Assembly: GCA_016839785.1 (NCBI GenBank)
Contig: JAEOTQ010000119.1
Location: forward strand, 1-32,512
Reading direction: 5' to 3'
DNA length: 32,512 nt
Source of the DNA: Candidatus Hodarchaeota archaeon
Lineage (GTDB): Archaea > Asgardarchaeota > Heimdallarchaeia > Hodarchaeales > Hodarchaeaceae
Shown in pieces: positions 2,346 to 11,399 of this stretch; within the stretch, counting starts at the first letter, position 1; each line of letters starts with the position of its first letter. The position numbers were made by a program, and so were the translations under genes. The notes beneath the pieces are model-generated. The model searched no databases. It saw nothing but the letters and a program-made list of their open reading frames with translations, and was not told the origin of the DNA.

Positions 2346-2456
2346 GTATTATTTGCTGCGATTGGTATTATTTGCATATTATGTGTGCTATTAATGCGAA
2401 AAAGAAGTATTATCAATAACTCAATATTGAAATAATATTTAGGAGGCATCGATGAG

Positions 2457-3071
2457 ATGAGTATCTTATCACGATTATTTGCACGGAGTCGAAAAACTCG
2501 AGTCACAATAGGAATCCTAGGAGCCCCTAATGCAGGAAAGACAACTCTTGCAAACCGTATTTCCAATGAATGTGGAAACGGTGAACCACTTGGTGTGGTA
2601 AGCCCAGTTCCTCATGAAACACGTGATTGCAAAGCTCTCGAACATTGTGTTATTAGCGATCAGAACGGATCACTAGATTTAACCATTGTCGACACTCCAG
2701 GTATTGCCACGTCAATAGACTATAGGGAATTCCAACAACATGGTTTAACAAGGCAAGATAGTATTCAACGAGCAAAAGAAGCAACTAGAGGAGTAATAAA
2801 AGCTATTCAAAGCTTAGATAAGATGGATGCGGCAATAGTAGTGGTTGACGCTGCTCGTGCACCATTTGATCAAATTAATTGGACTGTGATAGGAAATCTT
2901 GAAGCAAGACGGATCCCAATCATTGTTGCGGCTAATAAATCTGATTTAACTGAAGCCGATCCCGAACTTGTCAAAGAAACTTTCCAAAGTGATATTATTC
3001 CAATTTCAGCAAAAGATGGAACTGGAATGAATGAATTGTATGGAAGTATCCTATCTGTGTCAGGAATGTGA
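2457..3071 (+). CDS. arvA: Archaeal Era-like small GTPase, OapA/ArvA family
   Basis: G1 GAPNAGKT, G2 PHETR, G3 DTPG, G4 NKSD, G5 ISA; family-typical stretch RAKEATRGVIKAI and 'PFDQINWTVIGNLEARRIP'; SD AGGAGG upstream; followed by OapB- and OapC-like genes. Confidence 0.85.
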   Translation: MSILSRLFARSRKTRVTIGILGAPNAGKTTLANRISNECGNGEPLGVVSPVPHETRDCKALEHCVISDQNGSLDLTIVDTPGIATSIDYREFQQHGLTRQDSIQRAKEATRGVIKAIQSLDKMDAAIVVVDAARAPFDQINWTVIGNLEARRIPIIVAANKSDLTEADPELVKETFQSDIIPISAKDGTGMNELYGSILSVSGM

Positions 3072-3074
3072 GAG

Positions 3075-3392
3075 GTGCAAAAAGTGGACTTACGTATCAA
3101 TTTCGTGACGGAAAACACAACACGAAAAATGAACAGCACCCAGAAATGTGATTTTATAATTTCAAAACTTAAAACTGATTGTGTTTTGGTTTTTGAAGGC
3201 GGTCTTAATCCTGAAGAAGAAGCTGCTTTGATAGAGGAAGCTATGACTCAAATAGATCACCAAGAATTCTTGGGATATAAAATCCTTAATCCTACACCTC
3301 TCAGAATGAATGGACTGTTCAGTCGGAAGAACGTCAGAATGACGGTCATCGCTCCGTATAACTATGAACATCTCTCAATTGCGCTGGTCTAA
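3075..3392 (+). CDS. arvB: OapB/ArvB family protein (DUF2073)
   Basis: VLVFEGGLNPEEEAALIEEAMTQIDHQEFLG and MTVIAP resemble DUF2073; starts 3 nt after arvA. Confidence 0.8.
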   Translation: MQKVDLRINFVTENTTRKMNSTQKCDFIISKLKTDCVLVFEGGLNPEEEAALIEEAMTQIDHQEFLGYKILNPTPLRMNGLFSRKNVRMTVIAPYNYEHLSIALV

Positions 3393-3407
3393 TTTGACGG
3401 TGGATTT

Positions 3408-3755
3408 ATGGCATTAACTAGTGGAGAGGTCAATTTAAGCCGCTATCGTTGTGCAAAATGCGATCGTACTCCAGAAAAAGCGAATGAGCTCTTCACTGGA
3501 TGTTCATGTGGACATCGACTTTTTCGGTTACGTTTACAACCTTCAGCTAGTAAAAGAGCTTCTATTCCTCTTGATAAGACAACTTATTCAAAGGAAGATA
3601 TGGAGTTTCTTACAATTCGTGAGAGACAGATTGGTATTTATGATATAAATGTGGACAAATTACTCAAACGTGAACCTCAAAAGAAAAAATCTCCTGTTAT
3701 TGCTGGAAATAATGGAGTATATTCAATTCGTCTTGATTCCGTGTCAAAAGAATAG
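3408..3755 (+). CDS. arvC: OapC/ArvC family Zn-ribbon protein (DUF2072)
   Basis: CAKC...GCSCGHRLF Zn ribbon, then IRERQIGIYDINVDKLL and GVYSIRL; third gene of the operon. Confidence 0.8.
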   Translation: MALTSGEVNLSRYRCAKCDRTPEKANELFTGCSCGHRLFRLRLQPSASKRASIPLDKTTYSKEDMEFLTIRERQIGIYDINVDKLLKREPQKKKSPVIAGNNGVYSIRLDSVSKE

Positions 3756-3772: not shown

Positions 3773-4459
3773 TTAGGCCTTTACTAATTTAATTTCTCCT
3801 GAGACTTCGTTGAAAGCCACGACACCTAAACCATGAAGTAAGCGTAGATGTTTACGAATTATGATCGGGGCGAATTGTAACTCTGATGCTATGGTTTCTC
3901 TAGCGAGAGACTTCTTTTTAGAATTCTCAAAATAATCGACAATGAACATGGTGATTTTCCCCAATTCGGTTTCCTGCAACACTGTTCGTATAAGAATATC
4001 TTGTGCATGCGTGCTAGATGATTCTCGACTCAAATCCGCACTTACTTGGCCATATTGGTCTTCCATTCGCTTGATTTCTTCTTGGAGTTGTCTTTGAATT
4101 GCCAAATGACTTGCTTCTATACCTTCAATCTCATTTTCGGTGTCTTGAAGTAGCTGTTGCATTTTAGCAATTTGTTGCAAATATGATTCGACGGTTACCT
4201 CGTGTTGTTTAATAATTTCAGACATTTCTCCTATCTGTTTTTCCAGTTCTGCATTTTCAGCAGTTTTTACTTCAGATTTTGCTTTCTCTGCTTGAAGGTC
4301 AGTTTTGACATCACTGAGAACGTCTTGACTTTCTTGAAGTTGCTTTTCAAGATTAGTGGTGTCGCTAATTGCCTCATTGAGTTTATCCTGTGAATGATCT
4401 TTCATGCGCTCTAATTCTTCACGTAAATCATTAATAATGATGTCTTTCTCATCTTGCAT
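3773..4459 (-). CDS. Long coiled-coil protein with C-terminal winged-helix-like domain
   Basis: About 150 aa of E/Q/K-rich heptads followed by ETIASELQFAPIIIRKHLRLLHGLGVVAF (wHTH pattern). Confidence 0.7.
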   Translation of the reverse strand: MQDEKDIIINDLREELERMKDHSQDKLNEAISDTTNLEKQLQESQDVLSDVKTDLQAEKAKSEVKTAENAELEKQIGEMSEIIKQHEVTVESYLQQIAKMQQLLQDTENEIEGIEASHLAIQRQLQEEIKRMEDQYGQVSADLSRESSSTHAQDILIRTVLQETELGKITMFIVDYFENSKKKSLARETIASELQFAPIIIRKHLRLLHGLGVVAFNEVSGEIKLVKA

Positions 4460-7826: not shown

Positions 7827-8780
7827 GTGCAAGAATATCCAAGAAAACGTATTCCTATTGTTATTGTCGGACTAGAGTTTGCAGGGAAAACCTCATTCGT
7901 ATTGCGTCTCCAAACTGGTGAATTTGTTAATACACTTCCGACCTCAGGACTTGATACAGAAATTCTCGAAATTCAAGGCACGTTTTTCCAGCTATTCGAT
8001 CTTGGAGGCCACGAGCGATTCCGACACATGTTTTGGAAAGAGTATGTAAAGCTTTCACAAGGAATTGTTTTCATGATCGATGCAAGCGATCTTGAAAAAC
8101 TCGATGATGCAGTAGAATGGCTGTGGAAATGTTTAGAATGGAATCTAGAAGCACCTCTAGTGATTCTAGCAAATAAAGCAGATTTAACTCACATAGAATT
8201 ACCAAAATTAATAGACAAGGTTAATCTTAGGAAATTACCACGCCAAAGTCCCACTCGATCTTTTCAAATCTTTGAAATTTCTGTGAAGACTGGAATGAAT
8301 ATAGATCGGGCATTAAATTGGTTCTCTCAAAAAATTGCAGTTTCTCTCTCAAAAAAATACATTAAACTTGAAGGAATCTATCTTTTTCTTCGTACAGGAG
8401 TACCTATCGTATCTCATCTATTTATGGATCAACCAGAAGAAGCGATGGATAATGACATTGTTCCTGGATTTCTGAACGCAATAAATGAATTTGCAAGTGG
8501 TGTGATGGGCGGCAGTGAGGGATTAAGTTCCTTGACTACAGAGAAGCATTCTATAGTAATGGTTAAACACGAAACACTCCTATGTGCTATTATAACTGAC
8601 CTCGAATCGGATCTGTCTGTTGCACGGATGGTAGCTGAATCAGTAGTTATGCATCTCGAAAAAGCTTATCCAAATCAACTCCTTAAGTATCAATCAAAAG
8701 GTAAATTCCTTTTTCCTGAGAATTTCCTTGTAGATTATCTACAGCAAGAGTTCAACGAGAATGTAGTGATTTCTACTTAA
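7827..8780 (+). CDS. Arf/Sar1-like small GTPase fused to C-terminal longin/roadblock-like domain
   Basis: G1 GLEFAGKT, G2 LPTSG, G3 FDLGGH, W in FWKEY, G4 ANKAD, G5 ISVK; C-terminal GVPIVSH...GFLNAINEFA...LLCAIITD pattern typical of Asgard longin/roadblock domains. Confidence 0.85.
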   Translation: MQEYPRKRIPIVIVGLEFAGKTSFVLRLQTGEFVNTLPTSGLDTEILEIQGTFFQLFDLGGHERFRHMFWKEYVKLSQGIVFMIDASDLEKLDDAVEWLWKCLEWNLEAPLVILANKADLTHIELPKLIDKVNLRKLPRQSPTRSFQIFEISVKTGMNIDRALNWFSQKIAVSLSKKYIKLEGIYLFLRTGVPIVSHLFMDQPEEAMDNDIVPGFLNAINEFASGVMGGSEGLSSLTTEKHSIVMVKHETLLCAIITDLESDLSVARMVAESVVMHLEKAYPNQLLKYQSKGKFLFPENFLVDYLQQEFNENVVIST

Positions 8781-9645: not shown

Positions 9646-10404
9646 CTAAGTTTTACCAAAATTAATTGGTTTATCAACTTTGATGGATATCCCTTTTCCC
9701 CCAATATCGTAAGGGTGAACCCTCTTACTGTGATTCATACCCCGCATCTTTAAAATTTCAATCGCTCGTTCCCTAGAAGAATTTACAAGTATATATTGTA
9801 AATTAATAACACCATATGAAAGGAAATCTTCGGTAGAAAATTGAGGATTATGTATATCCGTCACCGCATCATCCGTGTTCTCATAGACAGCTAGAGTAGT
9901 GCACTGTTCTCCCCATAAGATACCTATTACTCTATGTAATTCTTTTCGTACCTCGAATAAATCTCGGAACAATAGGGAGAATGTATTGAGCGGATCAATT
10001 ACTAATCGGTTGACTCCCAAGCGCCGTACTTCATCAATTATTTTCTGGGTGACATAGTCCAGTGAGGCTTCCCGGAGTCGACTTGCTTGTTGCATTATCC
10101 CCATTTCTGTTGAGCTAAAATCTAAAACGGATAATTCTCCCATATCTTGTAATCCTTGCAGATCCCAGCCATAATTTCGCATAATGGCATTCAATGCGGG
10201 TAAGGGTTCATTAAAGGTCACCAAAAGACCAGGATCATGATATTTCAAAATCCCTTCGAGTAAGAATTGAATTGCTAAGGTCGTTTTTCCAACTCCTGCT
10301 CCTCCCCGTAGAGCAATGAACCACCCAGCTGGAATTCCCCCACCGAGAATTTTATCGAATTCTGGGATCCCCGTAGGTTTGATATTTAGACTACCATCGG
10401 CCAT
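9646..10404 (-). CDS. Single-domain KaiC/RAD55-like RecA-superfamily ATPase
   Basis: TGIPEFDKILGGGIP, Walker A GGAGVGKT, Walker B RLVID, EILKMRG; ATG at 10404 preceded by SD GAGGT (ORF track extends to 10425). Confidence 0.9.
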   Translation of the reverse strand: MADGSLNIKPTGIPEFDKILGGGIPAGWFIALRGGAGVGKTTLAIQFLLEGILKYHDPGLLVTFNEPLPALNAIMRNYGWDLQGLQDMGELSVLDFSSTEMGIMQQASRLREASLDYVTQKIIDEVRRLGVNRLVIDPLNTFSLLFRDLFEVRKELHRVIGILWGEQCTTLAVYENTDDAVTDIHNPQFSTEDFLSYGVINLQYILVNSSRERAIEILKMRGMNHSKRVHPYDIGGKGISIKVDKPINFGKT

Positions 10405-10455
10405 AGAAATAACCTCAATGTGCACTATTGGGAATGATGTGGTTAAAAGCCTTCT

Positions 10456-10856: not shown

Positions 10857-11399
10857 TTATCTATTTGTTATTTTACTCCGCCTAGCATCGATATGAGCAA
10901 TAATCTGTAGGGCTAGTTGGGTAAAAGCTTCCTGGACATTTGTTCCGTTAAGAGCAGATGTTTCATAATAGGTGGCATTAAATTGTTCGGCTTTTTGAGC
11001 AGCTGTTTCACGTTTTACAGCTCTTTTTTCCTCTAAATCAACCTTATTGCCGAATAACATTAAAGGGACCCCACCAGCTTTATCAGTAAAATCTGTATGC
11101 CATTTATCAAGCTTGTTCAGGGTTTCGGGACGAGTTAAATCGTAAACCATAATTCCGCCATGAGAATGCAGGAAATACTGCGTTCGGATATTTCGGAAAG
11201 AATCCTGACCGCTGAGATCCCATATTTGCATCGTCATGCGTGTTTCGGCATCTAATTGAAGTCTCTTTAGTAAAAAATTACTACCGACCGTTGTCTTATA
11301 GTCATGGCTGAAAGCTTGCTCGACGAAGCGACGGATAACCGAAGTTTTACCGACACCTCCTTGGCCTAATAAAATGACCTTGCAGCTATACATAACCAT
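10857..11399 (-). CDS. Rab-like small GTPase
   Basis: KVILLGQGGVGKTS, YKTTVGSNF, QIWDLSGQDSFRNIRTQYF, VYDLT, GNKVDL, ETSA; SD GAGGT. Confidence 0.92.
   Translation of the reverse strand: MVMYSCKVILLGQGGVGKTSVIRRFVEQAFSHDYKTTVGSNFLLKRLQLDAETRMTMQIWDLSGQDSFRNIRTQYFLHSHGGIMVYDLTRPETLNKLDKWHTDFTDKAGGVPLMLFGNKVDLEEKRAVKRETAAQKAEQFNATYYETSALNGTNVQEAFTQLALQIIAHIDARRSKITNR

Follow-up and report, generated by a model that had tools for sequence, protein, structure and literature searches.

A contiguous arvABC (dipABC/arcoABC) operon of a Hodarchaeales archaeon, probably encoding a Min-like GTPase system that positions the FtsZ ring

One archaeal system of three genes has by now received four names, OapABC, ArvABC, DipABC and ArcoABC. 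Mills et al. 2024 named the ArvA family from vesicle phenotypes of Haloferax volcanii (PMC10927574). Two bioRxiv preprints of 2026 describe the genes as a division system. He et al. (DipABC; 10.64898/2026.05.19.726155) report that deletions lead to minicells and mislocalised division proteins and that all three proteins oscillate. AfDipA from Archaeoglobus fulgidus hydrolyses GTP and binds liposomes with GTP, not with GDP, and AfDipB detaches AfDipA and stimulates hydrolysis. Zheng et al. (ArcoABC; 10.64898/2026.07.23.738820) describe a pole-to-pole oscillator that confines the FtsZ1 ring to midcell, in which ArcoA and ArcoB suffice for oscillation, while ArcoC binds ArcoA and blocks FtsZ1 polymerisation. 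Residues 1-20 of H. volcanii ArcoA and residues 89-97 of ArcoB bind membrane (Zheng et al.), and the segment of A. fulgidus DipA that is equivalent to the ArvA N-terminus was also shown to bind membrane (He et al.). Here, we analyze the corresponding locus in a Candidatus Hodarchaeota genome (assembly GCA_016839785.1). The window, meaning the whole stretch of 32,512 nucleotides of contig JAEOTQ010000119.1 that was analyzed, contains three open reading frames on the + strand at 2457-3755, which form the co-directional trio arvA, arvB and arvC.

The trio is the Hodarchaeales orthologue of H. volcanii HVO_3014/3013/3012. By orthology to the studied proteins, we think that it probably acts as a Min-like GTPase oscillator that positions the FtsZ ring. 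The features of the locus are the following.

2443..2447, + strand: GGAGG, Shine-Dalgarno-like as read from the sequence, 9 nt upstream of the arvA ATG; putative ribosome-binding site
2457..3071, + strand: arvA (= oapA, dipA, arcoA), 204 amino acids, ATG start; GTPase, predicted to be membrane-targeted
2457..2495, + strand: arvA codons 1-13; predicted N-terminal amphipathic membrane-targeting segment
3075..3392, + strand: arvB (= oapB, dipB, arcoB), 105 amino acids, GTG start (102 amino acids if GTG 3084 is used); DUF2073 protein
3408..3755, + strand: arvC (= oapC, dipC, arcoC), 115 amino acids, ATG start; N-terminal Zn ribbon and conserved C-terminal domain

A preliminary description of this DNA, made from the letters alone, had seen three tightly spaced genes for a GTPase, a DUF2073-like protein and a Zn ribbon protein, and these are indeed separated by only 3 nt and 15 nt. 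The start of arvB may be GTG 3084 instead of GTG 3075. For the downstream codon, GAGGTG at 3071-3076 would be a properly spaced ribosome-binding site 7 nt upstream, whereas GAGG directly abuts the start codon at 3075; two genus-mates begin arvB at the residue equivalent to GTG 3084.

The same description had identified the genes as oapABC/arvABC, and profile searches as well as phylogeny agree with it. ArvB matches PF09846 (OapB, formerly DUF2073) with 9.2e-17 and 61.3 bits against a cut-off of 27; this profile also finds its match in the H. volcanii control genome. ArvC passes PF09845 (OapC, DUF2072) marginally, with 1.7e-5 and 25.5 bits against a cut-off of 23, and only over its C-terminal half (residues 56-114). 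The N-terminal half holds the Zn ribbon C15-x2-C18 ... C32-x-C34, and C15, C18, C32, C34, G35, F39 and G76 do not vary in any of the 22 aligned rows. Against a purpose-built profile of 22 ArvC sequences the protein scores 91.5 bits, being itself a member of that profile. The arvA product is found by MMR_HSR1 (4.3e-16) and GTP_EFTU (7.2e-16) of Pfam. In NCBIfam, ArvA lies above the cut-off for the generic small_GTP domain only, and ArvB and ArvC have no match.

ArvA was said to carry all G motifs, and it does: G1 (G22-APNAGK-T29), G2 (T55), G3 (D79-TPG82), G4 (N160-KSD163) and G5 (S184-AK) are complete, and their residues fall in invariant columns of an alignment of 112 family members. Its N-terminus had been read as an amphipathic helix. 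Residues 1-13 are hydrophobic and basic with a net charge of +4, and I3, L4, L7 and F8 fall on the same side of the helix. With 0.53 (best 11-residue window), the hydrophobic moment is moderate and is reached by 13% of shuffled sequences (p = 0.13). The segment is of a membrane-targeting type that is found across the family, but its amphipathicity, while plausible, is not statistically distinctive, so that the helix claim draws on the family context and on published experiments. An AlphaFold2 model of ArvA (predicted local distance difference test, pLDDT, 90 overall) forms a short helix over residues 4-8, and its first ten residues (1-10) have a pLDDT below 50.

To place the GTPase, relatives were gathered as 78 GTPase loci from one-genome-per-species contigs, 30 OapB loci from the phylum of the window and another 30 from 101 genomes sampled in the phylum of Ca. 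Alkanophaga, 86 of which carry OapB. An ArvA match of at least 40% identity was present at 116 loci; four without a clean start (L007, L013, L015, L019) were dropped, leaving 112 sequences. At 112 of the 116 loci an open reading frame begins at most 100 nt downstream of arvA, only part of these frames being confirmed by tblastn with ArvB of the window. The window GTPase belongs to a clade of GTPases that are encoded directly upstream of OapB genes. Our main tree comprised 59 ArvA rows of less than 88% mutual identity and at least 185 amino acids, the outgroup being the G-domains of four bacterial FeoB proteins (first 200 residues); its euryarchaeal anchor consists of 16 rows from a Halobacteriota sample plus Ca. 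Alkanophaga, with no named H. volcanii sequence among them. The ArvA family is split from FeoB at 100/100. All 23 Asgard rows form one clade (ultrafast bootstrap 97, Shimodaira-Hasegawa-like approximate likelihood ratio test 81), which was recovered as monophyletic in 98% of 200 examined bootstrap trees, and inside it the window ArvA sits in an eight-row genus clade (97/100). Halobacteriota and Thermoplasmatota-like rows make up a separate clade (100/96), and the DPANN rows are not monophyletic. A quicker tree of 32 of the 112 rows recovered the same Asgard clade with a likelihood ratio support of 98. In that tree the Arf-like paralogue from the same genome was tried as an outgroup; it floated on a branch of length 10 and was dropped from the main tree. 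One row (L054) carries the NCBI label Thermoproteota and was counted as Asgard, since its genome is placed in the phylum of the window. Several rows of the genus clade bear the submitter labels Thorarchaeota or Hermodarchaeota; ArvA of such metagenome-assembled genomes (MAGs; L049 and L039 among them) is 76-85% identical to that of the window, and L049 groups inside the Hodarchaeales genus clade, contrary to its label.

The host genome is that of an Asgard archaeon and a Hodarchaeales relative, in line with the Asgard-like genome proposed at the outset. It comprises 4.04 Mb in 248 contigs and is 84.5% complete with 3.4% contamination, and the trio is present in a single copy. The closest named records by the GTPase are Heimdallarchaeota B3_Heim (97%), Hodarchaeota MAGs (94-96%) and Ca. 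Hodarchaeum mangrovi (79%), and the NCBI taxonomy places Ca. Hodarchaeum in Hodarchaeales within Promethearchaeati (Asgard archaea). There are 63 matches to a permissive Arf model genome-wide and two adjacent Snf7 (ESCRT-III) genes (C137:3334-4481).

Of 400 genomes of the phylum, 97 match PF09846. Within the class of the window the system is near-universal, and elsewhere in the phylum it is rare: 20 of 21 genus-mates and 72 of 82 genomes of the same class have OapB, against 24 of 317 others, and it is absent from all members of the families f20 (0/135), f12 (0/19) and f19 (0/14). The ArvC profile matched in 177 of the 400 genomes. We used only near-full-length matches, which occur in 20 of 21 genus-mates and in 30 of 31 members of family f4; in family f7 all 12 matched, 11 of them strongly. 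Many matches in families f20 and f31, which cover only positions 2-76 or fewer with E values of 1e-4 to 1e-8, were discounted as generic Zn ribbons. In all 20 genus-mates that have both genes arvC begins within about 100 nt of arvB, and the contiguous operon is thus fixed in this genus, where it is also concentrated. The situation is different in family f4, where 29 genomes carry both genes, 16 of them on the same contig at a distance of 4.8-8 kb and 13 on different contigs. In five genomes of genus g17 from the same class (G082, G085, G086, G087, G089; 69-90% complete) an ArvC-like gene is present at nearly full length (E 2e-18 to 5e-21), while OapB gave no match, and ArvA none at E 1e-20 or better in a search with a same-family query that had no positive control. 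The genus retains arvAB in five of its 11 members, which together suggests an orphan arvC in part of it.

These counts independently reproduce, on a newer genome set, what Zheng et al. had claimed, namely that arcoAB is carried by Heimdallarchaeia, arcoC being separate in most cases, and that the operon is contiguous in 8% of genomes (10.64898/2026.07.23.738820). He et al. place the system in "some species" of Asgard archaea and call dipC a "loner" in some (10.64898/2026.05.19.726155). Earlier, Mills et al. had reported ArvA homologues for no more than 8 of the 183 Asgard genomes. Their supplementary file 10 contains eight instances of "Asgardarchaeota", three of Jordarchaeia and five of Baldrarchaeia, the only Asgard groups that it lists, and none of the strings Heimdall, Hodarchaeales, Loki, Thor, Odin or Sif (PMC10927574); the class of the window was therefore missed at that time. 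The preliminary description, which took the triad to be mainly described in Euryarchaeota and DPANN, is overtaken in this respect by Zheng et al., who had already recorded the system in Heimdallarchaeia, and among them a minority in which the operon is contiguous. What we add to a known system is the independent count, the fixation of the contiguous form in one genus and a prediction of activation by potassium.

In this genome we checked the identity and order of the genes, their family membership, the intact catalytic and Zn-binding residues, the class-wide conservation and the presence of FtsZ. Membrane binding, stimulation of the GTPase, oscillation and inhibition of FtsZ are properties that the host proteins would share by orthology. 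GTP-bound ArvA would bind the cytoplasmic membrane by its N-terminal amphipathic segment and recruit ArvC, which would block FtsZ polymerisation. ArvB, with a basic and partly lipophilic loop of its own, would bind ArvA, stimulate GTP hydrolysis and free ArvA from the membrane. Running from pole to pole, the cycle of ArvA and ArvB might leave a time-averaged minimum of ArvC at midcell that permits formation of the FtsZ ring.

The likeness to DipABC/ArcoABC of H. volcanii (HVO_3014-3012) and to AfDipA/AfDipB of A. fulgidus extends over all three subunits. The three families are the same and stand in the same order, and FtsZ is encoded in the genome. The GTPase has complete G motifs with the P-loop GxPNAGKT and DTPG, and, at its N-terminus, a segment predicted to target it to the membrane; the B subunit has a basic loop with a small lipophilic face, and the C subunit a Zn ribbon at the N-terminus and a conserved domain at the C-terminus. 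However, there are differences. ArvA of the window is just 40-49% identical to the euryarchaeal rows. Unlike in H. volcanii, the operon does not lie beside an origin and the host also encodes ESCRT-III. With 115 against 330 amino acids, ArvC is a short, linker-poor form that lacks the long disordered linker and resembles the non-halobacterial DipC proteins of about 131 amino acids (He et al.). Both preprints draw the parallel to bacterial MinCDE, in which MinD corresponds to ArvA as the membrane switch, MinE to ArvB as the releasing activator and MinC to ArvC as the passenger inhibitor of FtsZ, with a gradient that has high levels at the poles and low ones at midcell. There is no sequence homology, and a GTPase engine takes the place of the ParA/MinD ATPase, so the relation is one of analogy and not of membership.

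At the place of the published membrane-binding loop ArvB retains a basic loop of 22 residues (net +5) with a GLF..K motif. He et al. and Zheng et al. call the orthologue SepF-like. For our AlphaFold2 model (pLDDT 82.6) the top match in Foldseek is indeed the archaeal SepF 7al1 (E 0.011, probability 0.99, TM score 0.47/0.56), but no Foldseek match reaches E 0.001. VIA-align gives Z scores of 5.1-5.5 for five SepF entries, and Pop6/7, SpoVS, Stn1 and IF3-C tie with them at 5.4-5.9; ArvB has no SepF Pfam match at E 0.01 or better. The likeness to SepF is plausible, though these comparisons do not make it specific, and it may reflect a common alpha/beta arrangement. Marginal matches of ArvB to solved sequences of Septin-7 and RAD57 (E 8e-4 to 6e-3) were treated as chance.

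Several observations weigh against a division oscillator in this host. The two papers on function have not been peer-reviewed and deal with a haloarchaeon and with proteins of A. fulgidus, so that all experiments come from outside the Asgard archaea. FtsZ_C has one match in the host genome (contig C180) and is found in all 21 genus-mates, yet it occurs in 385 of 400 phylum genomes against 97 for OapB. FtsZ therefore does not need the Arv system, and their co-occurrence is weak support. Since two Snf7/ESCRT-III genes are present, division may not rest on FtsZ alone. In the peer-reviewed study of Mills et al. (PMC10927574) the arvA knockout loses and the overexpression gains vesicles, so that a vesicle-related role retains some probability. 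As a hint of expression, two sediment metatranscriptome libraries from different studies contain contigs identical to parts of the operon, and one of 196 nt with zero differences from the window crosses the arvA/arvB junction at 2989-3184, but contigs from RNA libraries cannot prove transcription. Their cover is missing for 2300-2648 and 3203-3453, where they are uninformative, and one further contig reaches only 20 nt into the arvA side and was not counted as bridging the two genes. Finally, this is a divergent version of the system. The genus sits on a long stem branch (0.73 substitutions per site) as the most divergent form in the main tree, and the membrane-targeting segment has 13 residues as opposed to 20 in Haloferax. 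ArvB matches only positions 3-87 of the 104 of PF09846, and its tail after TVIAP comprises 16 residues compared to 23-33 in 29 rows from outside the genus. ArvC scatters around the 23-bit cut-off of PF09845, with about 18-25 bits in the window and four genus-mates (18.3-23.6 bits in the latter).

A further-reaching reading concerns the engine itself. We propose tentatively, and with somewhat less than even confidence, that ArvA is a K+-activated GTPase of the Era/MnmE/FeoB type with a hydrophobic residue in the place of the catalytic Gln, not an Arf/SR-beta switch, and that the compact Hodarchaeales operon could be a minimal oscillator for selecting the FtsZ site in ESCRT-bearing Hodarchaeales. 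Such a minimal system could be made up of the 13-residue membrane segment, the trimmed ArvB tail and an ArvC of 115 amino acids without a long linker. The best profile and fold matches of ArvA point to Era, EngA (Der), MnmE (TrmE) and FeoB. Against solved structures the family profile finds Der/EngA with 9.6e-17, TrmE with 1.6e-13 and Era with 1.8e-10, and Arf-like chains near 1e-7. Foldseek puts Era (3iev; E 1.2e-10, TM score 0.67) at the top, together with the MnmE G-domain, and Arl3 at rank 17. Over 45 family members Pfam gives MMR_HSR1 in 45, FeoB_N in 40, Arf in 37 and SRPRB in 11, with best E values of 1e-16 for MMR_HSR1 versus 3e-8 for Arf.

The signature residues fit this picture. Two Asn residues, one in G1 (GxxNxGKS/T) and the other five positions past the G1 Lys, are reported to determine K+ binding in MnmE, FeoB and EngA (PMC3466195). 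ArvA has both of these Asn residues of the K+-activated TrmE-Era-EngA-type GTPases: N25 in 107 and N33 in 111 of the 112 rows. The residue following DxxG is I, L, V or M in all 112 rows (Ile in the window), a hydrophobic residue that defines the "HAS-GTPase" pattern (10.1101/2020.08.16.253419). Hydrolysis would then use a K+ ion in place of the arginine finger of a GTPase-activating protein, and ArvB would speed it up without such a finger, for instance if it orders the switch-I K-loop or favours dimerisation. The signature hence bears on how ArvB activates ArvA. "Potassium" occurs nowhere in the main text of Mills et al., He et al. or Zheng et al., and He et al. purified their proteins in buffers with 150 mM KCl. 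The prediction, drawn from sequence, sits uneasily with the tree of Ras-superfamily GTPases of Zheng et al., who place ArcoA beside SR-beta; the matches obtained here do not favour SR-beta, and the legend of Figure 6 in that preprint says "Era-like". There is also a difference to the Era/MnmE-type proteins, as ArvA is a single G domain with a predicted N-terminal membrane helix and has no KH or other RNA-binding domain.

An Arf/Sar1-like N-terminus had been proposed for ArvA. This holds as an analogy, namely of an N-terminal amphipathic helix with GTP-coupled exposure to the membrane. It does not hold for the catalytic part, where G3 reads DTPG-I and not DxGGQ with the catalytic Gln. The Pfam Arf model covers only residues 2-38 of ArvA (23.6 bits), no stretch passes on its own and a full-length Arf match is lacking. 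We therefore rejected ArvA as a member of the Arf/Sar1 family. The nearest paralogue of ArvA in the genome is an Arf-like GTPase of 28% identity (C116:43178-43690, - strand), and its N-terminal hydrophobic/basic segment resembles that of ArvA, which accounts for the Pfam Arf match to residues 2-38.

Two alternatives to the FtsZ-positioning oscillator have to be weighed, each of which we regard as unlikely. According to the first, the primary role is the biogenesis of extracellular vesicles: insertion of the helix of GTP-bound ArvA would deform the membrane or recruit a coat, with ArvB as a positive and ArvC as a negative regulator. The knockout of arvA abolishes RNA-carrying vesicles and its overexpression yields 3.5-fold more, the arvB knockout gives 3.13-fold fewer and the arvC knockout 1.65-fold more vesicles (Mills et al. 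2024, PMC10927574), and ArvA of the window retains the N-terminal hydrophobic/basic segment. However, mass spectrometry of the vesicles in the same study detected neither ArvB nor ArvC, the catalytic motifs are of the Era/MnmE and not of the Arf type, and two independent preprints show oscillation, inhibition of FtsZ1 and minicells for the same genes. Of the arcoC deletion, Zheng et al. mention no more than an earlier report of "vesicle formation upon deletion" (10.64898/2026.07.23.738820). We infer that the vesicle counts might reflect disturbed division, a view that is not stated by Zheng et al. The suggestion that this lineage uses ArvA-type vesiculation alongside eukaryote-like GTPases is thus correct in that such GTPases are abundant, while vesiculation is no longer the best inference after the two preprints of 2026.

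The second alternative, to which we give the same low weight, is that the Hodarchaeales trio has drifted to a modified job in which the ArvA membrane switch was kept and its partners changed. One could think of a static gradient associated with a pole or a protrusion, or of membrane remodelling coupled to ESCRT-III. The long stem branch, the ArvB tail (short in 5 of 5 genus rows) and the weak similarity of ArvC to its Pfam model speak for such a drift, as do the presence of ESCRT-III and the missing Pfam match to SepF in a genome that is 84.5% complete. The five g17 genomes with a full-length ArvC-like gene and no ArvA or OapB match imply that the parts are separable in this class. On the other side, all catalytic, Zn-binding and loop features are kept, FtsZ is retained throughout the genus, and the contiguity of the trio in 20 of 20 genus-mates argues for a continued joint function.

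A replication-origin-associated function, from which the name Oap derives and which the position of the H. volcanii operon beside oriC1/orc1 might suggest (10.64898/2026.05.19.726155; 10.64898/2026.07.23.738820), is highly improbable here: the 32.5-kb window holds no Orc1/Cdc6 gene, and we rejected an origin association of the trio on the distances to the nearest Cdc6_C match, which lies about 320-650 kb from arvB in five single-contig Asgard assemblies.

For annotation, the FtsZ-positioning reading has a practical side. In Asgard MAGs the trio is now labelled "Era-like GTP-binding protein" (the NCBI name for ArvA homologues), "hypothetical" or even "MnmE". We suggest annotating it as the Dip/Arco (Oap/Arv) division-site system; it should not be taken to indicate a vesicle-trafficking pathway. 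The host genome combines FtsZ, ESCRT-III and the Dip/Arco trio.

The surroundings of the operon are conserved as well. A convergent gene ends 17 nt past arvC and is listed here.

3773-4459, - strand: coiled-coil protein, 228 amino acids, with weak SMC and CENP-F matches only; converges on arvC

This gene occupies the same position in 20 of 20 genus-level loci and has no match at E 1e-5 or better in loci outside the genus. The wider order in the 20 named genus-level loci runs from a major facilitator superfamily transporter over arvABC and the convergent coiled-coil gene to a nucleotidyl-transferase. Further along the window, an Arf-family GTPase is encoded at 7827-8780 (+ strand; 114.5 bits), which is extended at its C-terminus by some 150 residues unmatched in Pfam. 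At a distance of 2 kb follows a Ras-family GTPase (10857-11399, - strand; 164.6 bits), and a KaiC-like ATPase gene at 9646-10425 is located between the two.

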